Position numbers and translations under genes: made by a program
Assembly (NCBI RefSeq): GCF_036507355.1
Contig: NZ_AP027877.1
Strand: one strand, 5' to 3'
Length of the DNA stretch: 64,000 bases
DNA from: Escherichia coli
Lineage (GTDB): Bacteria; Pseudomonadota; Gammaproteobacteria; Enterobacterales; Enterobacteriaceae
Shown: in pieces, positions 43 to 30,055 of the stretch
How the letters are laid out: each line of letters starts with the position of its first letter
Numbering within the stretch: position 1 is the stretch's first letter
The notes under the pieces: model-generated
Seen by the model: only the letters and a program-made list of their open reading frames with translations
What the model was told of the DNA's origin: nothing
Databases searched by the model: none

Positions 43-1776
43 GTGAAACAACAGATACAACTTCGTCGCCGTGAAGTCGATGAAACGGCAGACTTGCCCG
101 CTGAATTGCCTCCCTTGCTGCGCCGTTTATACGCCAGCCGAGGAGTACGCAGTGCGCAAGAACTGGAACGCAGTGTTAAAGGTATGTTGCCCTGGCAGCA
201 ACTGAGCGGCGTCGAAAAGGCCGTTGAGATCCTTTACAACGCTTTTCGCGAAGGAACGCGGATTATTGTGGTCGGTGATTTCGACGCTGACGGTGCCACC
301 AGCACGGCTCTAAGCGTGCTGGCGATGCGCTCGCTTGGTTGCAGCAATATCGACTACCTGGTACCAAACCGTTTCGAAGACGGTTACGGCTTAAGCCCGG
401 AAGTGGTCGATCAGGCCCATGCCCGTGGCGCGCAGTTAATTGTCACGGTGGATAACGGTATTTCCTCCCATGCGGGGGTTGAGCACGCTCGCTCGTTGGG
501 CATCCCGGTTATTGTTACCGATCACCATTTGCCGGGCGACACATTACCCGCAGCGGAAGCGATCATTAACCCTAACTTGCGCGACTGTAATTTCCCGTCG
601 AAATCACTGGCAGGCGTGGGTGTGGCGTTTTATCTGATGCTGGCGCTGCGCACCTTTTTGCGCGATCAGGGCTGGTTTGATGAGCGTAACATCGCAATTC
701 CTAACCTGGCAGAACTGCTGGATCTGGTCGCGCTGGGGACAGTAGCGGACGTCGTGCCGCTGGACGCTAATAATCGCATTCTGACCTGGCAGGGGATGAG
801 TCGCATCCGTGCCGGAAAGTGCCGTCCGGGGATTAAAGCGCTGCTGGAAGTGGCAAACCGTGATGCACAAAAACTCGCCGCCAGCGATTTAGGTTTTGCG
901 CTGGGGCCACGTCTCAATGCTGCCGGGCGACTGGACGATATGTCCGTCGGTGTGGCGCTGTTGTTGTGCGACAACATCGGCGAAGCGCGCGTGCTGGCAA
1001 ATGAACTCGATGCGCTAAACCAGACGCGAAAAGAGATCGAACAAGGAATGCAAATTGAAGCCCTGACCCTGTGCGAGAAACTGGAGCGCAGCCGCGACAC
1101 GCTACCCGGCGGGCTGGCAATGTATCACCCCGAATGGCATCAGGGCGTTGTCGGTATTCTGGCTTCGCGCATCAAAGAGCGTTTTCACCGTCCGGTTATC
1201 GCCTTTGCGCCAGCAGGTGATGGTACGCTGAAAGGTTCAGGTCGCTCCATTCAGGGGCTGCATATGCGTGATGCACTGGAGCGATTAGACACACTCTACC
1301 CTGGCATGATGCTGAAGTTTGGCGGTCATGCGATGGCGGCGGGTTTGTCGCTGGAAGAGGATAAATTCGAACTCTTTCAACAACGGTTTGGCGAACTGGT
1401 TACTGAGTGGCTGGACCCTTCGCTATTGCAAGGCGAAGTGGTGTCAGACGGTCCGTTAAGTCCAGCCGAAATGACCATGGAAGTGGCGCAGCTGCTGCGC
1501 GATGCTGGCCCGTGGGGGCAGATGTTCCCGGAGCCGCTGTTTGACGGTCATTTCCGTCTGCTGCAACAGCGGCTGGTGGGCGAACGTCATTTGAAAGTCA
1601 TGGTCGAACCGGTCGGCGGCGGTCCGCTGCTGGATGGTATTGCTTTTAATGTCGATACCGCCCTCTGGCCGGATAACGGCGTGCGCGAAGTGCAACTGGC
1701 TTACAAGCTCGATATCAACGAGTTTCGCGGCAACCGCAGCCTGCAAATTATCATCGACAATATCTGGCCAATTTAG
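43..1776 (+). CDS. recJ: single-stranded-DNA-specific exonuclease RecJ
   Basis: 577-aa ORF with DHH-family motifs (VGDFDADGATS, DHH); full-length enterobacterial RecJ-like sequence; recJ-prfB-lysS synteny. Confidence 0.95.
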   Translation: MKQQIQLRRREVDETADLPAELPPLLRRLYASRGVRSAQELERSVKGMLPWQQLSGVEKAVEILYNAFREGTRIIVVGDFDADGATSTALSVLAMRSLGCSNIDYLVPNRFEDGYGLSPEVVDQAHARGAQLIVTVDNGISSHAGVEHARSLGIPVIVTDHHLPGDTLPAAEAIINPNLRDCNFPSKSLAGVGVAFYLMLALRTFLRDQGWFDERNIAIPNLAELLDLVALGTVADVVPLDANNRILTWQGMSRIRAGKCRPGIKALLEVANRDAQKLAASDLGFALGPRLNAAGRLDDMSVGVALLLCDNIGEARVLANELDALNQTRKEIEQGMQIEALTLCEKLERSRDTLPGGLAMYHPEWHQGVVGILASRIKERFHRPVIAFAPAGDGTLKGSGRSIQGLHMRDALERLDTLYPGMMLKFGGHAMAAGLSLEEDKFELFQQRFGELVTEWLDPSLLQGEVVSDGPLSPAEMTMEVAQLLRDAGPWGQMFPEPLFDGHFRLLQQRLVGERHLKVMVEPVGGGPLLDGIAFNVDTALWPDNGVREVQLAYKLDINEFRGNRSLQIIIDNIWPI

Positions 1777-4550: not shown

Positions 4551-5054
4551 TTATTGATAGTGTTTTATGTTCAGATAATGCCCGATGACTTTGTCATGCA
4601 GCTCCACCGATTTTGAGAACGACAGCGACTTCCGTCCCAGCCGTGCCAGGTGCTGCCTCAGATTCAGGTTATGCCGCTCAATTCGCTGCGTATATCGCTT
4701 GCTGATTACGTGCAGCTTTCCCTTCAGGCGGGATTCATACAGCGGCCAGCCATCCGTCATCCATATCACCACGTCAAAGGGTGACAGCAGGCTCATAAGA
4801 CGCCCCAGCGTCGCCATCGTGCGTTCACCGAATACGTGCGCAACAACCGTCTTCCGGAGCCTGTCATACGCGTAAAACAGCCAGCGCTGGCGCGATTTAG
4901 CCCCGACATAGCCCCACTGTTCGTCCATTTCCGCGCAGACGATGACGTCACTGCCCGGCTGTATGCGCGAGGTTACCGACTGCGGCCTGAGTTTTTTAAG
5001 TGACGTAAAATCGTGTTGAGGCCAACGCCCATAATGCGGGCTGTTGCCCGGCAT
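4551..5054 (-). CDS. insB: IS1 InsB (transposase frame, normally expressed as InsAB by -1 frameshift)
   Basis: 167-aa ORF overlapping the insA 3' end in the -1 frame; canonical IS1 InsB sequence. Confidence 0.9.
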
Positions 5055-5248
5055 CCAACGCCATTCATGGCCATATCAATGATTTTCTGGTGCGTACCGG
5101 GTTGAGAAGCGGTGTAAGTGAACTGCAGTTGCCATGTTTTACGGCAGTGAGAGCAGAGATAGCGCTGATGTCCGGCGGTGCTTTTGCCGTTACGCACCAC
5201 CCCGTCAGTAGCTGAACAGGAGGGACAGCTGATAGAAACAGAAGCCAC
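4973..5248 (-). CDS. insA: IS1 InsA
   Basis: 91-aa [46 protein letters not shown], the canonical IS1 InsA. Confidence 0.95.
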
Positions 5249-5504: not shown

Positions 5505-6260
5505 TTGAGTGCGGGACGCCTGAATAAAAAATCTCTGGGTATCGTGATGTTGTTATCGGTTGGACTGCTTTTGGCGGGCTGTTCGGGTAGCAAATCATCC
5601 GATACAGGAACGTATTCCGGCTCCGTTTACACCGTGAAACGGGGGGATACGCTATATCGTATTTCGCGCACCACGGGAACCAGCGTAAAAGAACTGGCGC
5701 GACTGAACGGCATTTCCCCCCCTTACACTATTGAAGTAGGTCAGAAACTAAAACTGGGTGGGGCGAAAAGTAGCAGTAGTACACGTAAATCAACCGCCAA
5801 ATCAACGACTAAAACCGCATCGGTTACACCGTCATCAGCGGTACCGAAATCTTCCTGGCCGCCAGTAGGGCAACGTTGTTGGTTATGGCCAACGACAGGG
5901 AAAGTTATCATGCCGTATTCGACAGCAGATGGCGGCAATAAAGGGATTGATATCTCAGCTCCACGGGGTACACCTATTTACGCCGCGGGTGCAGGAAAGG
6001 TGGTGTATGTGGGCAACCAGCTGCGTGGCTACGGTAATCTCATCATGATTAAACACAGTGAAGATTACATTACGGCTTACGCCCATAATGACACGATGCT
6101 GGTAAATAATGGGCAAAGCGTGAGGGCTGGGCAAAAAATCGCCACCATGGGGAGCACGGATGCGGCATCTGTTCGCCTGCATTTCCAGATTCGTTACCGT
6201 GCAACGGCAATTGATCCGCTACGTTACTTGCCGCCGCAGGGCAGCAAGCCAAAATGCTGA
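5505..6260 (+). CDS. ygeR: LysM/peptidase M23 lipoprotein YgeR
   Basis: Probable TTG start at 5505 preceded by GAGGA (the track ORF starts at an upstream ATG at 5481); lipobox LLAGC, LysM segment (YTVKRGDTLYRISR) and C-terminal M23 domain; located immediately upstream of glyU. Confidence 0.85.
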   Translation: MSAGRLNKKSLGIVMLLSVGLLLAGCSGSKSSDTGTYSGSVYTVKRGDTLYRISRTTGTSVKELARLNGISPPYTIEVGQKLKLGGAKSSSSTRKSTAKSTTKTASVTPSSAVPKSSWPPVGQRCWLWPTTGKVIMPYSTADGGNKGIDISAPRGTPIYAAGAGKVVYVGNQLRGYGNLIMIKHSEDYITAYAHNDTMLVNNGQSVRAGQKIATMGSTDAASVRLHFQIRYRATAIDPLRYLPPQGSKPKC

Positions 6261-6338
6261 TGGCGAATTAATCAGCAGTCAGCAGCGCGGCACTTGCTAA
6301 GGAGAGCGTAAGGTTTATAATGCCTTACGCATCTCGAA

Positions 6339-6412
6339 GCGGGCGTAGTTCAATGGTAGAACGAGAGCTTCCCAAGCTCTATACGAGGGTTCGATTCCCT
6401 TCGCCCGCTCCA
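6339..6412 (+). tRNA. glyU: tRNA-Gly (anticodon CCC)
   Basis: 74-nt sequence GCGGGCGTAGTTCAATGGTAGAACGAGAGCTTCCCAAGCTCTATACGAGGGTTCGATTCCCTTCGCCCGCTCCA with cloverleaf and CCC anticodon. Confidence 0.97.
6390..6412 (+). repeat. attL core: 3' end of glyU (23 bp), direct repeat of 10585-10607
   Basis: TTCGATTCCCTTCGCCCGCTCCA occurs identically at 6390-6412 and 10585-10607. Confidence 0.85.
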
Positions 6413-6546
6413 TGACCTTTCTTAAAGTACTCCAACCTACTGAATCCTAAGGGATACGGCTTTAAGCCTTCCGCTAGTTTTACTCACTGTAACCAACACT
6501 GTAACTAAATTTGTTGAAATAGTGAGCAGACTTAAGATCTCAGTAC

Positions 6547-8178
6547 ATGCTCAACTCAAAAACCTATCTTTATCAGCGCAATGGCGTCTTTTATATCCGC
6601 CTCAGGATGAAGTCCACAGATCGCCTGACCGTTTCACATCCTTCCCATAGCCGTTATAAAATAGCGTCAGTATCACTACGGACTAAGGATAGACGTACAG
6701 CTATGGCTTACTCACGGCAAATCAAGGCAGCACTTAGGGCAATCCATGCAGACAGACCCAACGCCTCCTATGAGGAAATGAGGGAACACCTGAGGGACAT
6801 CGCAGAGTGGGAGTTGTCTACAGGTCGTTCAGACCTCTTCGAGCCAGATATGAGAGATCTATACCGTGACCAGTATGGGGAAGTGGGAGAGAATCTTGTC
6901 CATGCTCTGGCAAGCGAGCCACTGACTATTGACCAGCATCGCTATATTAATGAGGCTCTTAATGTACTCAAGGCCTGCATGAAGCGCATTGAAGCGGGAG
7001 ATAGCCAGCCACTTATAGATTATATAGATGGATTTGATGCTGCTGCTGGGGCTAATGGCCAAGCCTCTGCAACTCTATCTGTTAGTGCTCCCCAAAAAAC
7101 AAGCATTACTGAAGGCAAACACTGCGTAACCGTTGCTTCTCTCTTTGAGCAGTACGAGCAGGAAAACGCCCAGAACTGGAAGCCAGCAACATTACGAGAA
7201 AACAAAGCTTCTCATGCTGCGTTAATCGAAGTTTTTGATTATCTGGGCCTCAATGCTGACGCCAATGTGTTAGCTCGTGCGGATATGCTTAGGGTTCGGG
7301 ATATCCTCCAGCAATTGCCGAAGAATCGTAAGCAGCGTTTCAAAGATGTTCCGTTGGTTGACCTGCTAGGTCGTGAGGATAAAACCGATTGTCTGGATAT
7401 TGTTACCATCAATAATAAATATCTCATTAAGATGGCGGCTGTTTTCAAGTGGGCCGTGCGTAATGACCTGATTAAAAAGAATATGACAGAAGGGCTAGAG
7501 CTTAAGGTTCCCCAGCGTAAAGCCTCTGAGGCGCGTAATGCTTTCTCTACGGAGCAGGTAGGACAACTACTGGCTGCCGCCCAAGTTTACTCACAGAGAC
7601 CTTCTGGTAAGCCGTATCATTATTATGTTACCGCCTTGGCTGCTATCACTGGGGCGAGACTCAATGAAATAGCCCAACTACAGGTCAAAGACGTCAGGAC
7701 CACTGAGGCGGGAACCGTTTATATTCATATCAATGAAGACGATAGTAGTCTACCCGGTAAGAGCATCAAGAACGCTCATAGTGACCGCTGTGTGCCTCTG
7801 GTCGATGGGGCCTATGGTTTTATATTGGCTGACTTTATGAGGTTGGTTGAGACCCGTAGAGGCGCTGATGGTGATGACGCTATGGTGTTCGATGGTCTTC
7901 GCCTCATGAAGAACGGTTACGGTGAGCAGGTGAGTAAATGGTTTAATCGGACGTTGTTGCCTAAAGTCCTCGCAGACCGTAGCGGCTTAGCGTTTCACTC
8001 GTTTAGACATACAGTTGCGACCCAGTTAAAACAACATGGGGTCGAGTTGGCGTATGCACAGGCGATCATGGGGCATAGTTCAGGGTCTATTACTTACGAC
8101 CGTTATGCTAAAGAGGTTGAGGTTGATAGACTGGTCAATGTGATGGCTGATGTTTATAAGGAGGTTGTGGCCCCTTAA
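6547..8178 (+). CDS. tyrosine-type integrase (543 aa, extended N-terminal region)
   Basis: C-terminal catalytic motifs ARLNEI (Arg), HSFRHTVAT (H-x-x-R), GHSSGSITYDRYAK (Tyr); first gene after the tRNA att core. Confidence 0.85.
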   Translation: MLNSKTYLYQRNGVFYIRLRMKSTDRLTVSHPSHSRYKIASVSLRTKDRRTAMAYSRQIKAALRAIHADRPNASYEEMREHLRDIAEWELSTGRSDLFEPDMRDLYRDQYGEVGENLVHALASEPLTIDQHRYINEALNVLKACMKRIEAGDSQPLIDYIDGFDAAAGANGQASATLSVSAPQKTSITEGKHCVTVASLFEQYEQENAQNWKPATLRENKASHAALIEVFDYLGLNADANVLARADMLRVRDILQQLPKNRKQRFKDVPLVDLLGREDKTDCLDIVTINNKYLIKMAAVFKWAVRNDLIKKNMTEGLELKVPQRKASEARNAFSTEQVGQLLAAAQVYSQRPSGKPYHYYVTALAAITGARLNEIAQLQVKDVRTTEAGTVYIHINEDDSSLPGKSIKNAHSDRCVPLVDGAYGFILADFMRLVETRRGADGDDAMVFDGLRLMKNGYGEQVSKWFNRTLLPKVLADRSGLAFHSFRHTVATQLKQHGVELAYAQAIMGHSSGSITYDRYAKEVEVDRLVNVMADVYKEVVAP

Positions 8179-8179
8179 G

Positions 8180-8234
8180 GATGACCATAGGCGATGACCA
8201 TAGGCGATGACCATAGGCGATGACACTTGCTACT
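8180..8234 (+). repeat. tandem 13-bp iterons (GATGACCATAGGC x3 plus a variant GATGACACTTGCTACT)
   Basis: Three perfect head-to-tail copies starting one base after the integrase stop; the variant unit recurs at about 8391-8410. Confidence 0.8.
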
Positions 8235-8293
8235 ATTCCTATGGTCCCCTTTGTGGTCCTATGTGGTCCTGTGTGACCCTTTGTGTGGTCATG
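8235..8293 (+). repeat. cluster of TGGTCC/TGTGGTC short repeats
   Basis: ATTCCTATGGTCCCCTTTGTGGTCCTATGTGGTCCTGTGTGACCCTTTGTGTGGTCATG: about five degenerate copies of one motif. Confidence 0.7.
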
Positions 8294-8330
8294 TTTTGAC
8301 TCATAGTTTTCACTACTTGTCAAGCATATT

Positions 8331-8353
8331 TAATACGACTCACTATAGGGAGA
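8331..8353 (+). promoter_or_regulatory. bacteriophage T7 RNA polymerase promoter (exact 23-bp class III consensus)
   Basis: TAATACGACTCACTATAGGGAGA read directly, predicted +1 G at 8348; followed by a TCTCTCTCTGTCTCTCTC tract. Confidence 0.85.
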
Positions 8354-8584
8354 AGGGACACAAAAAGTTTTCTCTCTCTGTCTCTCTCTATGATGACACT
8401 TGCTACTACTTCAGGTAGCTTTAACTCTAACCGTAACTTATCGCATCCTTTCAGGGGCGGGATGACCAATTACAGACACCAAGCGTTCTACTTAAAATGA
8501 ATGCTTCCTGTGTGCTCTGGGTCAGTCGATAAGTGAATAGCCTTAGACATCATATTAATTATGGTCTCTAACCCCTACAGGGGC

Positions 8585-8729
8585 TTAACTTTAAGTATTA
8601 ACTTATAGTCTACTTAAAGACACAATTAAAGATTAACTTAAAGTATTAAATTATAGATTAATTAAAGACCAATTAAAGAGTAACTTTAAGTATTAACTTA
8701 TAGTCTACTTAAAGACACAATTAAAGATT
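8585..8729 (+). repeat. AT-rich iteron array with two ~48-bp direct repeats (TTAAAGA/TTAAAGAC units)
   Basis: AACTTTAAGTATTAACTTATAGTCTACTTAAAGACACAATTAAAGATT at about 8587-8634 and 8682-8729; preceded by CCCCTACAGGGG at about 8570. Confidence 0.8.
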
Positions 8730-8920
8730 GACTCTAAGGGAATACCTTAAGAGGTGATGATATTCATAATAATCAATCACCAAACCTATAGGTCTCCTCA
8801 AGGCATTACCCAGAAGCTAACTGTATGGCCCTGTATGGTCCTGTACGCCATTCTTTAGGATGCCATGTAGTTTCGTATGGCCTGATGCCTAGCGTGGCTC
8901 AGAGACCCTCCCAGTAGTAA

Positions 8921-8945
8921 ATCAATACGACTTACTAATAGGAGA
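8921..8945 (+). promoter_or_regulatory. degenerate T7-like promoter (putative)
   Basis: CAATACGACTTACTAATAGGAGACA: 18 of 23 positions match the T7 consensus, same orientation, about 230 bp upstream of the 9158 ORF. Confidence 0.45.
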
Positions 8946-9157
8946 CACACTCCGAACCACTCACCACGTGTCTCTCAAAGTTCCACCTCTCGCGCTTCAC
9001 CATACAGTAGCTCCGCACAGCTACGACACAATCATTCATTCAATCTCAAAGTCATTCTGTTTGCATCCTGTTGTCCTGCTGGTCTCCCTTCGCTTGGGGA
9101 CTTTGAGTGGGCCAGTAGGGGGCGGTTTAGTGTGCATATTTAAAAGGTAACCAAGCA

Positions 9158-9721
9158 ATGAACAATAAACATAAACATGCAGGTCATATTATCACTATTG
9201 AAGGCCACAGCTTTAAGTCTAATGAGTCTGGCATGTGGAATCTTACAGAAATATGGAAAATCCTCGGATTACCTAACAATAAGCTACCCTCTCAGTGGCG
9301 CGGCAAGGTAACAAAGAGGCTCACCGACATGCAAAAAATGCACGTCGAGAAGATTGGTATTGAAAGCATAACCTACGCAGACAAACAGGCTACCCTCAAG
9401 TATGCAGGATGGGTCTCTGAAGATTTCGAGGACATGGTCTATGCAGCCTTTGAGGCTATCCTTGAGATGCCTGAAGTTGCCACGGTCGTTGCTAATAAGA
9501 TGGTCGAACTTGGCTATCACGCTGAAGCTGAGCTATTGGAACGTCATAAGGACGACTATAGAGAAGCTATGCAGACCCTTAAAAAGATTGGTAAACGTGT
9601 TGACGGCAGGAAGCCTGAGCGCATCTACAAGGCCGTACTTAACGGTAATCTGACGAAATTTCAAGGGTTATCCATGATTTCTCGCAGCAGTGTCTGGTAC
9701 GCCCGAACAGTGAATCTATGA
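9158..9721 (+). CDS. hypothetical protein, possible KilA-N-like N-terminal domain
   Basis: 187-aa ORF with AAGGTAA upstream; N-terminal IITIEGHSFKSNESGMWNLTEIWKILG...AGWVSEDFEDMVYAAF is reminiscent of KilA-N/APSES-type domains (tentative, from recall). Confidence 0.5.
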   Translation: MNNKHKHAGHIITIEGHSFKSNESGMWNLTEIWKILGLPNNKLPSQWRGKVTKRLTDMQKMHVEKIGIESITYADKQATLKYAGWVSEDFEDMVYAAFEAILEMPEVATVVANKMVELGYHAEAELLERHKDDYREAMQTLKKIGKRVDGRKPERIYKAVLNGNLTKFQGLSMISRSSVWYARTVNL

Positions 9722-9844
9722 TGGCTATCGATCACGATAGATGCCAGCGATCAATTTCAGGTTACCGATCGAAACAAACGATCAGCACGATGGTTGCAAT
9801 CGGATATCATATTGACACTTGTCTGACATCCTGAAGGTATCAAT

Positions 9845-10318
9845 ATGTTTGGGCTTTTTAAGAAAAAGGCAAAAGCGGAAAGGTGTTATGATGTAACACG
9901 CATTCAATACGAGCTGGTTGTAATGTCATCTAAGCTGATAAAAAAACAGACCGATATGTTCAAAGTAATAAAAGGGGAGCGAGAGGAGGCTTTAGGAGAC
10001 CCTTTATTATCAGCAGGGTATATAACGCCATGGGTCATTGGATATTGCACTGGTCTCCTGGATGCAGTGACTCAGACGGAGGCTAACAGGATGGCATTTA
10101 CATCAGAAATGCTTGGGCTTCTTTTTGCTGCAGTTTTCGGTGATGATAAGTCTCTTGAGGCCATGGGAACTTATATAGCCTGTAACGAAGCCTCCTCACC
10201 AGACCATGGATTTCATGTTACGTATGAGCTTTATATGTCTGGTCTAGCGAAAGCGTTTAATGAGGTATGTGAGGATAAACCTGCGATAGGACTTCTGAAC
10301 TATTTAATGCAGGATTGA
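9845..10318 (+). CDS. hypothetical protein (157 aa)
   Basis: ORF with no recognisable motifs; TTGACA at about 9810 upstream; last ORF before attR. Confidence 0.45.
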   Translation: MFGLFKKKAKAERCYDVTRIQYELVVMSSKLIKKQTDMFKVIKGEREEALGDPLLSAGYITPWVIGYCTGLLDAVTQTEANRMAFTSEMLGLLFAAVFGDDKSLEAMGTYIACNEASSPDHGFHVTYELYMSGLAKAFNEVCEDKPAIGLLNYLMQD

Positions 10319-10584
10319 AAATTTCCCACAAAAATCTCAGTGCCTATCTAACAGTAATAACCCTGCAACATTCCCCCGTATACCTCCAGAAGTTATCCAG
10401 AAGCCGAAGTAGGTATCCTGTCATGTATTTGAATCATCAAAGTTGTTCGTTCTATTCCTCTTTAGGGAATATTACAGCCCTACAGCCTTGACCAGAGATC
10501 ACTTGATGTGTAACCATAACTGTAACCAAAAGGATTCATCATCCTTTAAGAAACAATTGGTTAGTGAGTGATTGTCTTCGATAC

Positions 10585-10607
10585 TTCGATTCCCTTCGCC
10601 CGCTCCA
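10585..10607 (+). repeat. attR of the 4.2-kb element (also proximal att of the next islet)
   Basis: 23-bp copy of the glyU 3' end; flanking sequence diverges from the tRNA. Confidence 0.85.
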
Positions 10608-10771
10608 AACTCAAGTCTCCTGAAGTCTACCAAACTCAATTTTTCCTTGATAAATCAGCAGTTATAGCTTTCTATTAGTCTATTGAACTCAATTGTACTC
10701 CCCCAGGGTCAAGCTCAATGTGGGGGTATGGATGGGGGTATAATTGTACCCCCTGCTGAGAGGTACCCCCA

Positions 10772-11998
10772 ATGAAGCTGACTGCTCGTCAGGTTGAAAC
10801 TGCGAAACCCAAAGAGAAGCCCTACAAACTGGCCGATGGTGGTGGGCTTTACCTGCTGGTTAATCCCAACGGTAAAAGATACTGGCGTCTCAAATACCGT
10901 TCGTTAGGTAAAGAGAAGCTGCTCGCTATTGGCGTTTATCCCGATGTTTCTTTAGCTGAGGCCCGAAGTAAGCGTGAGGATGCTAAAAGAACATTAGCGG
11001 CTGGCAACGATCCCTCTCTTGAACGAAAAATTGAGAAACTTAGTCGTCAACAAGACGCTGAAAACTCGTTTGAGGCTATCACACGGGAGTGGTATCAGCG
11101 TCGCTATGACCGCTGGTCTGTCTCCTACCGCGAAGAAATGCTGAGAACCTTTGAGAAAGATGTATTTCCTTATATCGGTCACAGGCCAATCAAAGATATC
11201 AAGCCGATGGAGTTGCTTGCAGTTCTTTCAAAGATAGAAGCACGAGGGGCAACAGAGAAAGTCCGCAAGGTTCGTCAGCGTTGTGGAGAGGTCTGGAAGT
11301 ATGCCGTTGTGACTGGGAGGGCCGAGTACAATCCAGCACCTGATCTAGCCAGCGCCGTGAGTCCTCATGAGAAAGAGCACTATGCTTTTTTAACCCAGGA
11401 TGAATTGCCTGAGTTTCTTCGGACTCTGAACGCCTATGCCGGTAGTGTGCTTGTTAAGATTGCGATGCAATTGCTCATTTTAACAGGAGTAAGGCCAGGG
11501 GAGTTGAGGCAAGCGGAGTGGCAGGAGTTTGATTTTGAGAAAAAGGTTTGGAATGTACCAGCGGAACGTATGAAAATGCGCCGCCCTCATCTTGTTCCAT
11601 TATCAAGCCAGGCAATTGACCTGCTTAATCAACTTAAACCCATAACGGGAGCAGGAGCGTTATTATTCCCAGGACGTAATAATCCTAAGAAACCGATGAG
11701 CGATATGGCATTGACTGTGTTGGTCAGGCGTATCGGCTATGCCGGGCGCGTTACAGGGCATGGATTCCGCCACACGATGAGTACCATTTTGCATGAGCAG
11801 GGATTCAACTCGGCCTGGATTGAGTTACAGCTGGCTCACGTCGATAAGAACTCAATTCGTGGGACGTATAACCATGCTCAATATTTGGAAGGTCGGCGGG
11901 AGATGATGCAGTGGTATGGAGATTTCATCGGTCAAGCAGGCAAATCCGGATCATCGCTAGCTTATGCAGCTATTAGCTTGACTGCTGAATTAGAGTGA
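10772..11998 (+). CDS. P4-type tyrosine integrase
   Basis: 408-aa ORF; N-terminus MKLTARQVETAKPKEKPYKLADGGGLYLLVNPNGKRYWRLKY typical of P4-family integrases; HGFRHT and Y-containing C-terminal box; sits 165 bp after the tRNA-derived repeat. Confidence 0.9.
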   Translation: MKLTARQVETAKPKEKPYKLADGGGLYLLVNPNGKRYWRLKYRSLGKEKLLAIGVYPDVSLAEARSKREDAKRTLAAGNDPSLERKIEKLSRQQDAENSFEAITREWYQRRYDRWSVSYREEMLRTFEKDVFPYIGHRPIKDIKPMELLAVLSKIEARGATEKVRKVRQRCGEVWKYAVVTGRAEYNPAPDLASAVSPHEKEHYAFLTQDELPEFLRTLNAYAGSVLVKIAMQLLILTGVRPGELRQAEWQEFDFEKKVWNVPAERMKMRRPHLVPLSSQAIDLLNQLKPITGAGALLFPGRNNPKKPMSDMALTVLVRRIGYAGRVTGHGFRHTMSTILHEQGFNSAWIELQLAHVDKNSIRGTYNHAQYLEGRREMMQWYGDFIGQAGKSGSSLAYAAISLTAELE

Positions 11999-13206: not shown

Positions 13207-14910
13207 TTACTTTTTACTTCCAAATTGAATGCCGAGAAGTTTATTCTCTGCTTTATCGCCACGTAGAGTAAGAACAATTTTTGATTTCAGTTCTAACATT
13301 TCGATTTCAGATAAAGTTGTTTCCATAGCATTAAAGTTTTCAGTGTTTAAAGATGCTATATATTGCTTTCCGCTTCGTTTTAATGACTGATTGACAAATG
13401 AGAACCATCTTGCGCGAACACCTGGATCTATATCAGCAAAAAGACGGTTATCATGCCATAGCATATCCATGGCATGGTTTTCACCACATGTAAATACTAA
13501 CCAGTCAAAGCATAATATCCTAGCATCATTGATCCCATCCGAATCATCACCCTCGATTTGGATGCTTAGATCATAACGAATTTTGTTGTCACCAGTATTA
13601 ACATCCAAAACTATTCCTGCTGGTACCCTTGGGTACATTATTTCTGCGAGCTCAGCAAAAATTTTATCGTATTCTGAAAGAGGATTTGTAGAAGCATAGT
13701 TTACCGCTAATCTGTCTTGTTCAACTTTTCGTTCTCTTAGATTTTGAGCTTTCTGTTGAAGGTTAATAGAAAAATTTAAATAATCATGTAACCTTTCTTT
13801 TTCTTCTTTAAATTCAGCTAGTTGTCTAGCTATGACTGCGTATTCATCAAATGCTTTCTTGCCTTGCAGGGATTCCAAATATGAATCACGTAATGCTGAA
13901 ATATCCTTAATGTCAATTTTAAGAGATTCAATTTCTAACAAAAGTTTTACTTTATCATTTTCAAGTCTTTTCTTTCTGTTAAAAGATAATGATTTGTGAA
14001 AATTTTCAACTGACTCAAAATGGGCCAATGTTTCTGGCTTGAAAATCTCTTGTAAGCCATTGTACAGTTCAAGAAGCTCTTCTCTTGAAATGTCAGGGTG
14101 TTCTAATAAAGTTTTTTCTATATTATTTACTTTAAATTCAGCTATATTTTTGTTTTTTTCAACTTCTCGTAATTTTATAGTTAAACTGTTTGTTTCATTC
14201 TCAATAGCTCTGTATTGCTCGTGAACTTGAAATGCATTCAGTTCATCCTGCAGTCTTGGGATCTCTCTTTCTAGCCACTCATAGCGTACTTTAGGTTGAG
14301 AGCCTGCTCTAAACATGTCTTTTAGAATATCATCGTCTTGCCAATTTTTTAGCGATTGACTTACTTTATCCAGCTCTTGCTTATTATTTCTTTTAGATAA
14401 TATTAAATTATGATCTATACCGAGAAGAAATGCGGTACGAAGCAATGCTTCAAAGTCTTGCTCCTTTTTTGTCCTAGTTGGACTGATGCAGTCATCTCTG
14501 GTATATCGCGAAAAACGCTTAAATAAAGATCTGAATGATAAATACGGAATGTTATTCTCAAGATTAAATATTCCTATTTTATCTAATAAATCTTTAAATG
14601 CTTTTAAAGATATTGTTTTGTCATTTAATAATAATTTTTTTCCATTGCCCGTTCTAGATATTAAGTACTCAACTCCATTATGAGAAAAAAGTAAAGAGAA
14701 CCACCAATCTGGAACTGCTGAAGTTAATTTTTTATCAGCATTAGCTCCTAAACAATGTTGAATGAGACCGAGAATAAGTGTCTTACCGACTCCGTTACTA
14801 CTGCCTTCTTTTTCTTTAGAGCTATCACCAATGATCAACGTTAGTCCTGTATCATTGAAATGCACTGGATGAAAAGTTGGCTGATCGCAAGTTAAGCGAA
14901 TTAACTTCAT
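13207..14910 (-). CDS. SMC/ABC-type P-loop ATPase with long coiled-coil region (putative anti-phage ATPase)
   Basis: 567-aa ORF; Walker A GSSNGVGKT near the N-terminus; long K/E-rich heptad-like middle; start codon abuts the stop of the upstream 101-aa gene. Confidence 0.65.
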   Translation of the reverse strand: MKLIRLTCDQPTFHPVHFNDTGLTLIIGDSSKEKEGSSNGVGKTLILGLIQHCLGANADKKLTSAVPDWWFSLLFSHNGVEYLISRTGNGKKLLLNDKTISLKAFKDLLDKIGIFNLENNIPYLSFRSLFKRFSRYTRDDCISPTRTKKEQDFEALLRTAFLLGIDHNLILSKRNNKQELDKVSQSLKNWQDDDILKDMFRAGSQPKVRYEWLEREIPRLQDELNAFQVHEQYRAIENETNSLTIKLREVEKNKNIAEFKVNNIEKTLLEHPDISREELLELYNGLQEIFKPETLAHFESVENFHKSLSFNRKKRLENDKVKLLLEIESLKIDIKDISALRDSYLESLQGKKAFDEYAVIARQLAEFKEEKERLHDYLNFSINLQQKAQNLRERKVEQDRLAVNYASTNPLSEYDKIFAELAEIMYPRVPAGIVLDVNTGDNKIRYDLSIQIEGDDSDGINDARILCFDWLVFTCGENHAMDMLWHDNRLFADIDPGVRARWFSFVNQSLKRSGKQYIASLNTENFNAMETTLSEIEMLELKSKIVLTLRGDKAENKLLGIQFGSKK

Positions 14911-23812: not shown

Positions 23813-24790
23813 TCACTCTAATGCTTTTTGAGCAGCAAGTTCAAGTTCACTTTTTCCATGAAGTGCCAAAGACATATGGCATTCCGCTAGAAGGCAATAA
23901 CATTCTGTTTTTAGCGTCTGTATATCACTTTTATTTTGTAATCCATCAAATATAGTCATGGCCCTGTAAATGCTTTCAGGGGTGAACTCGTAAAGTTCTT
24001 TCTTTCCGGCTAACATTTCATCTGATAAATAATGATTCTTATATCCTTGGTCCTGCTTAGCTAATCTTACAGATCGTTCTGGTTTATGTACCGTTTGAAG
24101 GATATTATCTATAATAAATTGTGATGTATTATGTAGTTCATCAACAGGGAGATGATTACTGGCGATGAGGAAAAGGTTTTTAGCGTCGATCAACTCAATG
24201 TATAAAGTGTTCACTGCATTATTCTGGTTTATTCTTCCTGTAACGAAATAATCTGGCTTGAATCTGCTCAAGAATGAATTTTGAGATATGTGGTCATTAC
24301 AAAAATTTGTCGCAGCCATCGGATAGGTATAGAGACCATCGATTTTTTTATTTGAAATGATTTGTACTAATTCCTGATTAAGTATTAATGGATCCAGTGT
24401 ATTCAATGAAGTGGTGAAAGGGAATATAGCTATGGAATAGTCTGAAGTATTATCTTCATTAATTTTAGTTTTGAAAACCTGCCCGCTGAAACGATAACCT
24501 TTCCGGTAGATTGTTTCTATGCAGCGATCATAGCCAATTTTTTCAAAAATGCAGCGCAAAGAATAGATACATCTTGTCAGGGACTCGTCACTAACAATAA
24601 TATTTTTCCATACTGATTCGATGATCATATCTTTCAGTACAACATGACCAGCGGATTCAAGTAATACTATTAATACACCTAACTCTTTCGGTGGAATATA
24701 AACTTGCTCATTTCCTTGAGTAAGAATTCCATCTTCCGTGAGCGTTAATCCCTCAAGAAAATGATATGAGAATTTATTTTCTAAGTCCAT
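23813..24790 (-). pseudogene. ygeH: ygeH-like HilA/ToxR-type regulator (ETT2), 3'-truncated by the IS3-family element
   Basis: 325 aa with N-terminal winged-helix region; the reading frame stops on the TGA that is the first triplet of the IS terminus; K-12 YgeH is about 458 aa (recall). Confidence 0.65.
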
Positions 24791-25123
24791 TAGTTAACCT
24801 CTATGAAAAAATTGGTTTCTTGCATCCTGCATAAGCAATAGAAATTATGGCTATTCATATTTATATGTCATTAACGCTACAGGAGTTTACATTCGACATA
24901 TCTATGGTTGTGTTCACTAATTTATCTTAGGAATTCAGTGATGTAATCTGAAATAGCCTTATTCAATTTTGATAAAGTAAAATGCTCTCTAAAGCATTGA
25001 AAAATAATGATTTATTGTATGCTCTTAACTGTTTTAAGATGCTGATTTAAGAAAAGATAAGAGGTGCTGGTTATAGTGGTTAATGCACTATAACCAGCAA
25101 TTTTAACCAAATGATTGTAATGC

Positions 25124-25615
25124 TTAGTTATTATCTTCTGAATTATCGGTTAAGAGTTCGACATATGCCTGCGCTTTACTCTTAACACTATCATCCTCAC
25201 AATTGTTAATAATATGAAAGAAACATTGCATTGCGTTATCGATATTTTTAGCCCCAATTTGACATTGACCCATACGATAAATAACTGAATAGTCATCATA
25301 TGGCGAGTAATTATAACTTAGCTTGTAAAGGTCATATGCTTGTTGATATTTCTTTTTTGACTGACATACTGATGCAAAACCTTTTAGATATTCATGATTT
25401 TCGAACGCATAAATGCACAATAATTTATAATAAATTTCTGCCTCCGTTATATTACCCTTTTCATGGTAGTCGAATGCATATGCATATATTCTATCAAGGA
25501 TATCAGGAGTCAAACCATGTAGTAATGCCAGATTTTCTCCTTTCGATAATGCGTGTTTTAGTTGATTTGCCCATTCATCACTATTATTGAATATTTCAAT
25601 TGTTTCTGTGTCCAT
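25124..25615 (-). CDS. ygeG: TPR-containing type III secretion chaperone-like protein YgeG
   Basis: 163-aa acidic TPR protein, SicA/class II chaperone-like; ETT2 position. Confidence 0.7.
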   Translation of the reverse strand: MDTETIEIFNNSDEWANQLKHALSKGENLALLHGLTPDILDRIYAYAFDYHEKGNITEAEIYYKLLCIYAFENHEYLKGFASVCQSKKKYQQAYDLYKLSYNYSPYDDYSVIYRMGQCQIGAKNIDNAMQCFFHIINNCEDDSVKSKAQAYVELLTDNSEDNN

Positions 25616-25861
25616 AATATTCCTCTGTGATGTGTCTCGTGATGCTAAATTATTATTGATTGACTCATTAATATTTCTACATTTATCTTTTTTAAATTAT
25701 GAGTTTTAAGCTTGCATTGCTTATGAGTATATTTCTTCATTATTAGTAAAATTACTGTCCACTACAAACTAATTACATTATTAGTTATTTTGATAATATT
25801 CACCTTATTAGTAATCTTAATTACGACATTCCATAAATGCCTTAATGTGCATGACCATGAT

Positions 25862-26266
25862 TCATATTATCAATTTCCATTTTTCGATCAAAATTAAAAA
25901 GGGGATTTTTGCGAAGGGGCGAATGTCGTTTGTTTTTTTTTCTTTATTATGTCTGGTGATGAGGGGGGATAGAACGTCGGTGCATATAGTAGAGAATTTA
26001 TCCAGGTCTAAATTATTCTCTATTTTGGTCAGTTTTATGAGTTCATTTGTAGCCATACTCATTAAATCATCTGTTATCGGAAATTTATATATGCTCATAG
26101 CAGATAATATTGCTTGCTGAATTATTTCTTCAGAAAAATCCGCTATCTTTATTGACAAATCATGTATTTGATATTTTCCTCCAAGAGATTCTTGTTCAAT
26201 ATAATTTAAACCAGACCTCATAGTAATTTTAACTGGATTAACGAATTTTTCTTCATTTTTCTTCAT
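25862..26266 (-). CDS. ETT2-associated hypothetical protein (ygeF-like)
   Basis: 134-aa AT-rich ORF in the ygeF position relative to ygeG; no motif support. Confidence 0.35.
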   Translation of the reverse strand: MKKNEEKFVNPVKITMRSGLNYIEQESLGGKYQIHDLSIKIADFSEEIIQQAILSAMSIYKFPITDDLMSMATNELIKLTKIENNLDLDKFSTICTDVLSPLITRHNKEKKTNDIRPFAKIPFLILIEKWKLII

Positions 26267-26759
26267 TTTTCTTATTTTTGTTCTCCTGATCAGGAACTAA
26301 TGGTTGCAGTGGTAGGCTATTATTAATATTTCGTGGCTTCATTTTACATTTCTCTCATTTGATTAGAGCAAAATCCGAACTCGCAGCTTCTGATAATGTC
26401 AAATATCACCTTTTCTCATACTTTATTCTATCAAAAATCGCTCATTTTTACTTTTTTTACCATAATGTTACTTTGTAGCATCGGCAATTTACATAACTTA
26501 CACGTTGTTTTTTATATCCTGAAAAAACAGATAGATAGTGTGCGCACTCGAAATGATATTGGTAACATAAATAGCTTTATTCGTGATAAACATCTCAAAA
26601 GATTTCCTTTATTATATTCGAAATTCATTTGATCAAGGTTATCACCTTATGGAGACGTTACGTAGAATGACTATATTTGTTATCGGCACATTAGGGGTAT
26701 TAATTTTAGTATTGATGGAAGGTGATTATTGAACAGTAACATCGAGTCACGGTAAAAAT

Positions 26760-27197
26760 GTGAGGTATATAATGGATATTGAGTTTTCGCAGATTCATGA
26801 AATGGTCTATATGCATGATATTGTAAATTCGGACTCGAAAAAGAAACCAAGGATTCCGTTAAAAAAATTCCTTAATGCTGAGAAGGTTCTCACGCAAACA
26901 ACATCATGGGCATTAAATTCAAGATATGTGAATGTTAATTCTGTTAATAATGCCAACGTAAAGAGTAAAGTTAAAAACAGTTATATCTCACGATCTGTCA
27001 ATGATGAGTTTAGTTTAACAGATGATGAAATCAATTCTTTTAAAGAAACGTTAGTCCTTTCCTCTATTGATTCACTGAGTAAACTGGTTCTTAATAATCC
27101 TCTTTCTGTATTGTTTACTTCGACTGTACGAAGGAATAATAATCGAGCTAAGATGAATGTAGAGTTCGACTCATGGATTTGCACCAGATGTTGTTGA
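26760..27197 (+). CDS. yqeK: hypothetical protein YqeK-like
   Basis: 145-aa ORF; size, orientation and position match K-12 yqeK. Confidence 0.45.
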
Positions 27198-27345
27198 TAC
27201 ATGATATTTTACATTGCAAGGGGATGTCTGAAATGAAAGATGTTGATCAAAACTTTGATGCTTTAGACTGCCATATACTGCAAGCATATTTAATTTTATT
27301 GTTTTATGATTAACGAGGTTCCATCTTTTTGTTATCTATTTTAGT

Positions 27346-27840
27346 TTACCTTGCACAATGCATTATTGCTCTGTTACCAATACTCAAAATAAAAGCATGC
27401 TTACCTTGCTTTAGTATATTATAGCTTACACTTTTTTCTGGAAAGACATAAAAATCAGGAATAAGTTCTGCAAGTCTATCATCATCGACTTGATCCATAA
27501 TCTCAAACTTATTAACTTTCTTTGATGTTAAATGGGCTGTGTCATAGTTTTCAACCCATGTGTATTCAATATTTCGCCGTATTGATTTACTTTCTCTGTT
27601 ACCTTGTTGCCAGGTTCCACTCAACGCAACAGTTCCTGTTTTATTTTTTTGGTTATACATAAAGTCGATAGTAAGATTTGCTCGCCCCTGGTCATTAAAA
27701 ATTACCCAATTTGCAGTGCATGTCTCATTATATATCATTTTTTCTGCAGTGTAAGAATAGACAGTGAAGAGAATAAACCCACTGATAAAAACTAAAATAA
27801 ATAATAAGTTTTTTTTATAATCAATCACGATTAACCTCAC
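27346..27840 (-). CDS. yqeJ: hypothetical membrane-anchored protein YqeJ
   Basis: 164-aa ORF with N-terminal TM helix; overlaps the end of yqeI, suggesting an operon. Confidence 0.55.
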   Translation of the reverse strand: MRLIVIDYKKNLLFILVFISGFILFTVYSYTAEKMIYNETCTANWVIFNDQGRANLTIDFMYNQKNKTGTVALSGTWQQGNRESKSIRRNIEYTWVENYDTAHLTSKKVNKFEIMDQVDDDRLAELIPDFYVFPEKSVSYNILKQGKHAFILSIGNRAIMHCAR

Positions 27841-28630
27841 GGTAAGACAGGGTTAAACAGCCTGCCACTTCATGTTGGTTATAGTTTTTATTGCATGCCA
27901 TAACAATCATCCCCGGTGAGGATTTTGCAAGAGGGAAGTATAACCACGGATATTTTTTACAGTTAATCCCCGAATCCAATATCCGTGTTTTATATTTATC
28001 GAACTCTTTCAACCCATCAATTGTATCTTCTGTTACATTAAAATGGCAGCCATTAATTTCCGCAACAATCTTGTAATCCTTGAAAAATGGCTTCGGTTGA
28101 TTATTATTCCATAGCCAATATGCAAAATATGCGCCTATGACAAATGCGCTCAACATAATTAGATGACTTTTTATATGTTTGAGGATTTTGTTATTGAAAT
28201 TCTTTGCGCCACCAATGCTCTCTTTGTATCCCGCATTAACTTTTATGGCCGGTGGGGTATTGTGTGTATGTGCGTCTGTTGACGAGTTTATTACATGATT
28301 TTGTATGTTAATGTCATTATGGATCTTGAATCCTCTTCTCGGCACGGTTGCAATAAGTGAGTGGGTAGTATCACCAACAGCGCGAAATCCGCGTCTGATA
28401 ATGGATATGTTCTGATATAACGTGTTAGTTGGCACACGCATACCTTCTTCTTCCCAGACTCTGGTGAAAAAATCTTGTTGTGCAACCACATCAGGAAAAG
28501 CTTCAAGTAGAAGGGATAAACAACGACTGGCTGGCGTTGTCAGAACGACGTTAAGATCGGCGTTATGTACCGATATTAATTTTCGGTGCTCAGGCCAGAA
28601 CTCGATATTATCGTTAATAATCCAGTACAT
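27821..28630 (-). CDS. yqeI: ToxR-like winged-helix transcriptional regulator YqeI
   Basis: 269 aa; N-terminal OmpR/ToxR-type DNA-binding region followed by a TM segment (LIMLSAFVIGAYFAYWLW). Confidence 0.65.
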   Translation of the reverse strand: MYWIINDNIEFWPEHRKLISVHNADLNVVLTTPASRCLSLLLEAFPDVVAQQDFFTRVWEEEGMRVPTNTLYQNISIIRRGFRAVGDTTHSLIATVPRRGFKIHNDINIQNHVINSSTDAHTHNTPPAIKVNAGYKESIGGAKNFNNKILKHIKSHLIMLSAFVIGAYFAYWLWNNNQPKPFFKDYKIVAEINGCHFNVTEDTIDGLKEFDKYKTRILDSGINCKKYPWLYFPLAKSSPGMIVMACNKNYNQHEVAGCLTLSYREVNRD

Positions 28631-28963
28631 ACGTCAATAAACACTAAATCAATCGAAATGGAAATCACATAGTTTGCTAAGTATATTGGTATTTACGGCA
28701 TAAATATATATTAATTTTATATTTATCATGATGATTGAAATGAGGCTTTAATGGCGCAACGTAAAACTTTATATAAATTAACATGGTTAACATTTATGCC
28801 ACTATTGTTGATAAATTCATATTTCGTAATGCTTCTGAATTTTTCGTGTGATGGTTTTAAATACTATGTTGTTTACTCTTGGGGTTACTGCTTATTTATA
28901 AAATACGGGCATTCCAATAGATGCCCGTATAAGCAGAGTATGATTCTGGCAGATCGTTGAGTA

Positions 28964-29656
28964 TTAATGTTGGACCGAATGTGAACGAATAAATAACTCG
29001 TTTATTTTACCACCCATTCTCTTTTCGATTCGTTGCTTGTACGCGTAGATGCTACGGATATCCATATCCAGAACTTCAGTAATCTGATATGGGTTATAAC
29101 CAGAAACCATATACCCCATTATGGTGAATTCCATCTGAGTTAATGTGTTACCTCTGGTAAATGATAAATAACGACCAATAAATAGTTGTCTGATCTTTTC
29201 ATTGGCAACATCAAGACCATCATCATTATATATGACAGCAGATATTGCAGAGTTGTGCTTTCGCCAGTAGTTAGCTAACGATTGCATATTGCGGTCGCTG
29301 ACTAAAACAATCCCCATGTCAGTACTTGCAAGATAGTCAATCCAGTCTTTTTCAAGGAATAGACGTAAAAAACTTACTGAAAAATCGACAAAAATATATC
29401 CGCTTAATCTCGCATTGTGGTTTTTTGTTAAGATACCTTCCACCACACCACGATTAAAATATGAACTTTCTTCGGGCCACATACAAAAACACGAGTTTGC
29501 GCAATACTGAAAACGCGGTGACTCTTCTGGCATTATTTGGCAATGCATTGAGCAACTATTGCATGTAAGACTTTTATAACGACTACAAAGCCCCATGTTA
29601 AGAACCTCCCTATCCGTATATAATTGCATAATTTCATTGGTTATTGATGATGTCAA
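28964..29656 (-). CDS. yqeH: LuxR-family (GerE-type HTH) regulator YqeH
   Basis: 230 aa with C-terminal HTH (LTQMEFTIMGYMVSGYNPYQITEVLDMDIRSIYAYKQRI). Confidence 0.6.
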   Translation of the reverse strand: MTSSITNEIMQLYTDREVLNMGLCSRYKSLTCNSCSMHCQIMPEESPRFQYCANSCFCMWPEESSYFNRGVVEGILTKNHNARLSGYIFVDFSVSFLRLFLEKDWIDYLASTDMGIVLVSDRNMQSLANYWRKHNSAISAVIYNDDGLDVANEKIRQLFIGRYLSFTRGNTLTQMEFTIMGYMVSGYNPYQITEVLDMDIRSIYAYKQRIEKRMGGKINELFIRSHSVQH

Positions 29657-30055
29657 TACACCATGATTTTGTAATGTTGCTGGGAAAAATTGCGATTAAT
29701 CTGTATTTGCTATAATTCTGATTAAGACATTTAAAAATGCATTTCTCGTTATTAAATATGATTATGTTTCACTGATTTAATCTTGCATGGTTGAGAGTGG
29801 TCCAGATAACTATCTCATGGTATGAGAATATCTATATCGCAAATTGTTTTTGAATGACCAGAAGATATCTTGCGAATCTAAGTTATGCATCTTAAATAGT
29901 CTTATTTAAGATGTTCAGATCTCTTTGTGTGTTTAACTAACTGATAATTCTAGGATATGATGAGAGAAGTGATAGGGCGGAATAATAACAAATGAACATT
30001 ATGAAAAATGGAATGGTTCAAAATTGTAGTAATTTTGAACCATTCACAATGGATA

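Follow-up and report, generated by a model that had tools for sequence, protein, structure and literature searches.

The question raised by this locus is what an unusually long tyrosine integrase is for. The gene (int) lies in a 64,000-nt stretch of the Escherichia coli contig NZ_AP027877.1 (hereafter the window, i.e., the whole stretch of DNA that was analyzed) and encodes a protein of 543 amino acids (aa), whose extended N-terminal region was suggested by a first-pass annotation to carry DNA-binding or regulatory functions specific to its element. Here it is proposed that the integrase belongs to a conserved clade of similarly long enzymes and that it mobilizes a mini-island at the tRNA gene glyU that carries signals of T7-group phages, by way of a life cycle whose steps would depend on infection by such a phage. 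To this combined statement, inferred life-cycle steps included, a probability of about 0.7 is given. The integrase finding itself is correct but ordinary, and it is the surrounding element that deserves attention.

The gene and its product are genuine. The E. coli strain SBF22 has the same open reading frame (ORF) at 99.6% DNA identity, annotated as 'site-specific integrase' (WP_064734255.1), and Pfam Phage_integrase (PF00589) matches residues 334-522 (E 2e-18). In an alignment of 65 sequences, R371 is invariant, K408, H484, R487, and Y520 are at least 90% conserved, and H510 directly follows the conserved G509; as is typical of PF00589, a complete R-K-H-R-H-Y set is thus found in a C-terminal catalytic fold with a helical core-binding domain ahead of it. 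The R, H-x-x-R, and Y motifs do lie in the C-terminal third, as had been described, and the stretch ahead of the catalytic domain, earlier put at roughly 300 residues, comes to about 330. The length could instead be an artifact, resulting from a mistaken start codon or from the fusion of a small upstream gene to an ordinary integrase, and a Shine-Dalgarno sequence is indeed not obvious ahead of the ATG. However, NCBI's pipeline calls the identical ORF, and 24 orthologues from various Enterobacterales genera (516-552 aa) align with it end to end from residue 1, with the N-terminus MLNS..YLYQRNG kept and many invariant columns within residues 7-160, so that the 543 aa are not a product of annotation. 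One confident structure model also covers the entire chain, and all four of its segments are common to distant relatives, which makes an artifact hardly credible.

This model, built with AlphaFold on the 65-sequence alignment including distant relatives, reached a pLDDT of 87, whereas an earlier one from the 24 close orthologues only (pLDDT 51) was discarded. It divides the protein into four parts (Table 1), namely, I) a small N-terminal domain of the DUF6538 type, II) a bundle of long helices followed by a disordered linker, III) a helical core-binding domain, and IV) the catalytic domain. DUF6538 is matched by 33 of the 65 aligned relatives (E down to 1.7e-21), Phage_int_SAM_5 by 15, and Phage_int_M by 11; in the integrase itself no arm-binding or SAM-like Pfam family reached a significant score. 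Its sequence matches in the PDB (Tn1549 Int, XerA, XerD, and Cre) start at residue 283 or later, and its core-binding and catalytic domains fold like those of Tn1549 Int, lambda Int, XerH, and Cre. In hhalign, residues 187-516 align to residues 67-339 of lambda Int (probability 98.7%, E 5e-16), and as this range starts at residue 187, about 120 residues (67-186) are without a lambda counterpart. Profile search and structure prediction accordingly explain the N-terminal region in part: its two ends are of recognizable type, residues 6-66 as DUF6538 and residues 196-305 as an ordinary core-binding domain, whereas residues 75-169 and the linker remain without a match.

Hundreds of close relatives of 516-552 aa occur in E. 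coli, Klebsiella, Serratia, Yersinia, Citrobacter, Proteus, Pectobacterium, Plesiomonas, and others, conserved over their full length save for a variable stretch at about residues 160-195; orthologues across a range of Enterobacterales genera are 64-92% identical and retain every catalytic residue. When residues 1-323 were searched against 1.8 billion cluster representatives, 278 relatives were retrieved, many of which are 480-590 aa long and match over the whole N-terminal region at 30-40% identity. The distant relatives bear generic names only; their sources include Pseudomonas, Stutzerimonas, Morganella, and Aquitalea. Of the roughly 55 that were aligned, nearly all possess a middle segment of about 110-170 residues; in the closer of these it is about 30% identical to the query, and its conservation is no lower than that of the other domains. 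The four-part layout, retained by more than 50 relatives at about 30% identity, characterizes a conserved integrase clade with lengths of about 480-590 aa, and because distant relatives share all four parts, the extra length is no adaptation of a single element. Of the earlier suggestion of an element-specific N-terminal function, the extra domain has therefore survived, but its specificity has not, since the domain is clade-wide and the N-terminal parts flanking it are ordinary. Taken as a whole, this description of the integrase is considered highly probable.

The element that the integrase serves is bounded by two exact copies of the 3' end of glyU, referred to as attL and attR, which lie 4,195 bp apart. 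Apart from int it contains about 980 nt without a convincing ORF, followed by genes for a 187-aa and a 157-aa protein, and no other ORFs. Bounded relatives are 4.2-6.4 kb long. In SBF22 the mini-island stands alone at glyU; the strains NCTC10973 and D72 bear it as well. A second, unrelated island begins just past attR in the window, with a P4-type integrase gene (10772-11998) and then other cargo including an arsenic-resistance (ars) cluster, and in strain 23S01245-7, which is without the mini-island, this ars island directly abuts the tRNA gene. Because each stands alone at glyU in another strain, the two are independent elements stacked in tandem. Among 5,426 complete E. coli genomes, just 35 contain 80% or more of the island query (window 6300-10800).

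Both ends of the mini-island carry candidate arm-type sites. In the six bounded elements compared, which include two near-identical E. coli copies, same-orientation pairs of TGTAACC with a 12-nt spacing are found about 75-100 nt inside both ends, and elsewhere in these elements TGTAACC occurs only once, inverted and close to attR of one of them (L013). Such a pattern is as expected for arm-type sites and fits an arm-binding role of the N-terminal domain, which may bind these pairs. As for the helical bundle and its linker, our guess is that they aid intasome assembly or control directionality, because no excisionase gene is recognizable in the island. Upstream of int, a weak sigma-70 promoter candidate in 6511-6549 (TTGTTG, 16 nt, TAAGAT) has its end 8 nt ahead of the int ATG; given this position and the absence of a Shine-Dalgarno sequence, the int mRNA may be leaderless.

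The signals of T7-group phages begin downstream of int with the promoters. The T7 class III consensus promoter of the island has no mismatches, where none such was expected by chance (100 shuffles), is identical to the core of T7 phi6.5, phi9, phi10, phi13, phi17, and phiOR, and reads towards the two small genes. In a BLAST comparison of the noncoding region with 50,697 phage records it was the sole match, found in 168 records, mostly of the T7 group. Phage-type promoters, one to four each, lie on the same strand within 1.3 kb downstream of int in all 14 related loci that have enough sequence there. The specificity regions of these promoters differ between hosts, and each type that was tested has a match in real phages. 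In K. pneumoniae, the island has one T7-type promoter besides promoters of the K11 type, for which Klebsiella Przondovirus phages have about 10 matching sites per genome; the Citrobacter, Buttiauxella, and Enterobacter islands have a type matching Kayfunavirus phages (e.g., EcoDS1, Dev2, and SFPH2); and the Proteus and Kluyvera islands have one that is identical over 27 nt to Vibrio phage ICP3 and N4 promoters. In the window's island, the T7-type promoters are present without a phage RNA polymerase gene, the three ORFs named above being all that it encodes.

Towards the other end, directly after the last gene, lies a sequence that resembles the concatemer junction of T7. In the T7 counterpart (39746-39786), TTTAAAATATACCATAAAAATCTGAGTGACTA precedes and TCTCACAGT follows the start of the terminal repeat, which is the mature left end of the genome. 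The two are identical at 30 of 37 positions without gaps (z 10.5), and this is the best match of the island's arm anywhere in T7. The equivalent site in the other islands is located 150-270 nt upstream of attR. In Kayfunavirus-type islands it aligns over about 100 nt to the junction and left end of EcoDS1 (z 10.7 and 9.9) and does not align with T7 or K11, and in the Klebsiella island it is the K11 junction that gives the best match to this phage (z 6.5). With the promoters masked, the junction was the strongest island-phage similarity in three of three island-phage pairs. Since the junction of each island matches the cognate phage type, promoter type and junction type change together. All island genes are oriented like the junction mimic, from the left end inward, so that a concatemer entering left end first would present the att region and int first. 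With regard to island size, whole multiples of the bounded lengths fall at 37.0-38.7 kb (4195 x 9, 4810 x 8, 5452 x 7, 6160 x 6, 6435 x 6, and 6447 x 6) in a small, partly non-independent sample consisting of the window's island, L003, L010, L012, L013, and L030; these values are near T7-group genome sizes, as concatemer packaging would need.

Between the two promoters, three AT-rich tandem repeats contain TAAAG seven times versus 0.6 expected. Compared with the whole T7 genome on both strands, they match best at T7 5952-6017 (z 8.8), the AT-rich stretch just after phi1.1B, and next best at 408-498 (z 8.5), directly after phiOL and overlapping promoter A1; the observed score was 49, and dinucleotide shuffles reached at most 38. 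The stretch after phiOL we take to be a secondary T7 origin. The promoters phi1.1A and phi1.1B mark the primary T7 origins, and a T7 promoter is needed by every T7 origin (PMC8373140). The repeats are thus a candidate T7-type replication origin region, as judged from sequence likeness. A sigma-70 promoter scan of the island gave nothing above chance, and none in these repeats, although they resemble the region of T7 A1.

Immediately ahead of these repeats, a noncoding block has a core, TAACCGTAACTTATCGCATCCTTTCAGGGGCGGGATGACCAATTACAGACACCAAGCG, that is identical or nearly so in seven loci of five genera (one incomplete at its 5' end). It is more conserved than the neighboring genes, and it varies so little that it is unsuited to an analysis of structure covariation. 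A separate candidate, TCTCTCTCTGTCTCTCTCTAT (8371-8391), was considered for its resemblance to the right end of the T7 terminal repeat and was dropped, as it did not stand out in a genome-wide scan.

Covariation was found in a hairpin ahead of the 187-aa gene. Of 26 related loci, 15 have this hairpin, including loci with other flanking genes. Over 13 sequences, 98.7% of cells are paired, with five compensatory pairs and many switches from G-U to G-C; none of 500 shuffles reached the observed value in four of five measures and one did so in the fifth, and slid controls gave 38-53% pairing. The frequent G-U pairs suggest an RNA of the + strand, and an Rfam scan of the island returned the tRNA only and no family for the hairpin. 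Its internal loop and its position before the ribosome-binding site presumably recall T7 RNase III sites, and by this analogy it may be a T7-type RNase III processing site. Homologues of the hairpin are located in L003, L006, L008, L009, L013-L015, L019-L021, L024, and L026.

The two proteins encoded downstream offer few clues. For the 187-aa protein, KilA-N scored below the cut-off (E 1e-3), PD-T4-2_B matched weakly (E 1e-4), and no relative was found in PDB or NCBIfam; the 157-aa protein matched nothing in Pfam, PHROGs, NCBIfam, PADLOC, or PDB. In searches of the island proteins against Pfam, PHROGs, NCBIfam, and PADLOC, the marker genes of known satellite families (e.g., Psu/Delta/Sid/AlpA of P4; primase-replicase, TerS, or capsid-remodelling genes of PICI; and Fis/AlpA/primase of PICMI) were absent, and the island holds no remnants of T7 structural or replication genes.

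Related islands connect the integrase to a known defense system. In two E. coli loci (L026 and L027) and in K. pneumoniae ATCC 13883 (L003), a protein of 210-213 aa with DUF4145 starts at the int stop codon, overlapping it in the E. coli copies and directly abutting it in K. pneumoniae; the latter protein matches PD-T7-4 over its full length (E 8e-99). PD-T7-4 emerged from a selection for T7 resistance and belongs to a system that 'often overlaps an integrase gene' (PMC9519451), and it was later renamed RAZR, a HEPN RNase activated by the portal rings of T7 and T3 that was expressed from its own native promoter (PMC13017515); T7 promoters and island structure are not mentioned in the searched text of either paper. 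The present integrase type is the integrase that PD-T7-4/RAZR overlaps in published defense screens. In the sister islands carrying it, RAZR (a zinc-finger and DUF4145/HEPN protein) lies upstream of the phage promoters. The window's island is without RAZR and has 150 nt of short repeats instead (8180-8282), which occupy the place of the RAZR gene in comparison with L026 and L003.

Within these repeats, the 13-nt and 10-nt units are copies of CTATGGTC in mutually inverted orientation, and further such repeats are located at 8821-8844. They contain TGGTC, the recognition core of the T7 primase, which occurs 12 times on both strands of 979 nt versus about 2 expected; TGGTC and GTGTC (T7 primase sites) are both over-represented in them. 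Because the repeats are tandem copies, these counts are not taken as independent evidence.

Put together, these features suggest the following life cycle. Upon infection, T7 RNA polymerase would fire the consensus promoter, the transcript would be processed at the conserved hairpin, and the two small genes would be expressed. The promoter and the origin-like repeats would let the T7 replisome copy the element, the junction mimic would let the T7 terminase cut and package its concatemers, and the integrase would insert the element into glyU in a new cell. That the island behaves as a satellite in this manner is, judging from its signals, slightly favored. A stricter version, in which it would be a genuine T7-group satellite reduced to cis mimicry, packaged as roughly nine units in one concatemer (9 x 4,195 = 37.8 kb) and with the helical domain taking the place of an excisionase in the coupling of excision or integration to the cycle, is put forward tentatively, as something rather less than an even chance.

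Several observations weigh against these proposals. At the level of the integrase, the DUF6538 match is faint and below threshold (residues 41-64, E 0.055 in Pfam), and the N-terminal domain has no similarity to the lambda Int arm domain (residues 1-72) by BLASTP. At the level of the island, the promoters amount to one strong and one degenerate copy and no clean tandem array. The origin-like similarity lies in AT-rich, low-complexity sequence, and it surfaced, like the junction-like similarity, only in local alignment with T7, K11, and EcoDS1 and not in the BLAST against phage records. T7 cuts one genome length apart, and a cut-site spacing of 4.2 kb filling a 40-kb head is unexplained. Metagenome contigs of 4.1-4.6 kb that carry the integrase were considered as excised circles, a reading that was rejected: L026 begins in the tRNA and has no terminal overlap and therefore represents the integrated form, and L027 shares its gene layout. 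The IMG/VR matches are likewise taken to be provirus calls rather than virion DNA, their identifiers resembling those of isolate genomes. Finally, a literature search found no experiment on excision, replication, or packaging of such islands.

The main rival explanation, which is compatible with much of the evidence, is that the island is a defense element that spreads by ordinary horizontal transfer: the phage promoters would sense infection, T7 RNA polymerase would switch on cargo that aborts the infection or interferes with the phage, and the integrase would merely maintain the element. RAZR, an experimentally proven anti-T7 abortive-infection RNase, adjoins the integrase in the sister islands, the 187-aa protein has its weak match to PD-T4-2_B, and the promoters lie directly upstream of the cargo. 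On the other hand, a sensor needs a promoter only, which leaves unexplained both the origin-like repeats and a junction mimic that changes with the phage type. Moreover, RAZR sits upstream of the phage promoters where it is present and had a native promoter in the published work, and the window's island lacks it and has two cargo proteins without a convincing defense-family score. Defense as the whole explanation is therefore thought unlikely; it does overlap the satellite explanation, because satellites and defense functions often coexist.

It could also be argued that the island is a decaying remnant, for instance a piece of a T7-like prophage or an island that has eroded, in which the integrase is a relic and its length is functionally meaningless. 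This would agree with a content of just three genes next to about 1 kb of noncoding DNA rich in repeats, with a degenerate second promoter, and with insertion sequence (IS) elements that interrupt some related copies. Yet the integrase is intact, with orthologues 64-92% identical that keep all catalytic residues, and the layout, arm sites, hairpin, and junction mimic hold their positions while their sequences track different phages. The lack of T7 structural or replication gene remnants and the presence/absence polymorphism with exact att repeats argue in the same direction, and decay is regarded as very improbable. The mobilization of a T7-signal mini-island by an integrase of a conserved clade remains the preferred explanation.

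Compared with known integrases, the present one is like lambda Int in its core-binding and catalytic domains, in the predicted sheet-plus-helix fold of its small N-terminal domain, and in the candidate arm-type motifs at both ends of its element, and it shares the tRNA 3' end as a target with lambda Int/Tn1549/Tn916/P4-type integrases. Unlike lambda Int, it has the additional 120 or so residues between the N-terminal and core-binding domains and no accompanying excisionase gene. Unlike P4-type integrases, it matches neither Arm-DNA-bind_3 (PF13356) nor Phage_int_M (PF22022), both of which are found in the neighboring integrase 2.6 kb downstream (E 3e-28 and E 2e-33, respectively).

As for the element, Chen and Schneider (Nucleic Acids Res 2006) reportedly described islands of 4-13 kb in which a tyrosine integrase lies ahead of T7-like promoters, a gene for RNA polymerase is lacking, the small genes downstream number two to five, and the direct repeats at the ends measure 17-24 nt; they are said to have suggested that such islands are satellites of T7-like phages. 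The window's island agrees with this description (4.2 kb, int upstream, T7 promoter(s), two genes, and a 23-nt repeat) and differs in that, instead of a clean tandem set, it has a consensus promoter and a degenerate one. In a literature search, neither experiments on a T7 satellite nor later papers about T7-promoter islands were found. Among the satellites that have been studied, the phage-inducible chromosomal minimalist islands (PICMI) of Vibrionaceae are nearest in logic. Accessory genes of the PICMI type are AlpA, Fis, or primase, and none is recognizable in the window's island by Pfam or PHROGs. PICMI depend on virulent helper phages and are reportedly packaged as concatemers (PMC10803314), a mode that would also be required of a 4.2-kb element in a T7 head. 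Like the mini-island, PICMI are integrative elements of very small size that have few genes and lack capsid-remodelling genes. Differences from PICMI are the host clade and the putative helper family as well as the cis mimicry of the T7 promoter, origin, and junction.

More distant integrases of the clade reside in other islands. L028 (a Pseudomonas-like metagenome), L029 (Craterilacuibacter), and L030 (Morganella) have such relatives in islands of 4.8-7.3 kb, two of which adjoin a tRNA gene, either tRNA-Gly or tRNA-Thr. A small serine recombinase (Resolvase) is encoded in each of the three, an ORF6N- or pRha-type gene is present in two, and one has an AIPR abortive-infection protein; a regular-expression search did not find the T7-consensus promoter in them. 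A subgroup of integrases with a different N-terminus (MIQLSSSHKLP...) is represented by L018, L019, L021, and L022 from IMG/VR, which are integrated beside a tRNA cluster ending in tRNA-Gly(TCC) and not at glyU; in two of these, three identical T7 consensus promoters follow one another at intervals of about 120 nt.

In the surroundings of the mini-island, the gene order before the tRNA is recJ, prfB, lysS, IS1, and actS (ygeR). The IS1 copy (4551-5248) joins lysS directly to actS, and other E. coli genomes have xdhABC beside actS; it seems that the glyU region of this strain underwent an IS1-associated rearrangement. Beyond attR, the second island (10608 to about 27000) holds an ABC-three-component system (DUF2326, a candidate defense system; 13207-14910) and an arsRDABC/arsH arsenic-resistance cluster. 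At 24000-30000 the G+C content is 0.30-0.36 compared with 0.50-0.55 around it, and this stretch is probably a further horizontally acquired region near the ETT2/yge locus.

Table 1. Features of the glyU mini-island and of its integrase (positions in the window unless residues are given)
Feature	Position	Strand	Details
tRNA-Gly (anticodon CCC, glyU), integration target	6339..6412	+	ARAGORN; Rfam tRNA 71.6 bits
attL core, last 23 nt of tRNA gene	6390-6412	+	exact 23-nt repeat
P-arm candidate arm-type sites	6488-6494 (TGTAACC), 6500-6506 (TGTAACT)	+	12 nt apart, about 80 nt inside attL
Tyrosine integrase gene (int)	6547..8178	+	543 aa; ATG 6547, stop 8176-8178
Integrase N-domain, DUF6538 type	residues 6-66		strands 6-11, 14-22, 37-43 and helix 49-66 (AlphaFold)
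Integrase bundle of long helices	residues 75-169		AlphaFold; without known counterpart
Integrase disordered linker	residues 170-195		AlphaFold
Integrase helical core-binding domain	residues 196-305		AlphaFold; ordinary type
Integrase catalytic domain	residues about 330-541		AlphaFold; ordinary type
13-nt tandem repeats	8180-8224	+	3 x GATGACCATAGGC; repeat search
10-nt tandem repeats	8239-8282	+	3-4 x (C)TATGTGGTCC; repeat search
T7 class III consensus promoter	8331..8353	+	TAATACGACTCACTATAGGGAGA; exact 23 nt; predicted +1 G 8348
Conserved noncoding block	8425..8585	+	core about 55 nt (roughly 8431-8488), ends in hairpin CCCCTACAGGGG
Three AT-rich tandem repeats	8586..8738	+	47-48 nt; 79% A+T, rich in TTAAAG
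Degenerate second T7-like promoter	8923..8945	+	CAATACGACTTACTAATAGGAGA; 5/23 mismatches, closest to phi2.5 type
Conserved RNA hairpin	9059..9139	+	81 nt; 30 pairs, asymmetric internal loop; 18 nt before start codon 9158
187-aa protein, weak KilA-N / phage transcriptional-regulator type	9158..9721	+	phrog_129 E 8e-10
157-aa protein, WP_000467315.1 type	9845..10318	+	no family match
T7 concatemer-junction mimic	10315..10355	+	TTGAAAATTTCCCACAAAAATCTCAGTGCCTA before and TCTAACAGT after the equivalent cut, between 10346 and 10347
P'-arm candidate arm-type sites	10509..10527	+	TGTAACC at 10509 and 10521
attR core, exact 23-nt copy of tRNA 3' end	10585..10607	+	repeat search

To our knowledge, no satellite has been demonstrated for T7, the textbook virulent phage. 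The integrase described here marks a widespread, uncharacterized clade of long integrases that share a conserved extra domain. It leads to an E. coli element of 4.2 kb that has an exact T7 promoter, a likeness to both origin regions, and a copy of the genome-end junction, and whose relatives in other genera switch these signals in step to those of Klebsiella-type and K1F-type phages. The 2006 computational proposal thereby becomes directly testable with T7 and T3 in standard laboratory strains, and the island links that proposal to RAZR, a defense system that is now understood at the structural level. If the satellite explanation is true, the mini-island would represent the smallest known type of phage satellite in enterobacteria and a natural mobile element that senses infection via the phage's own RNA polymerase.

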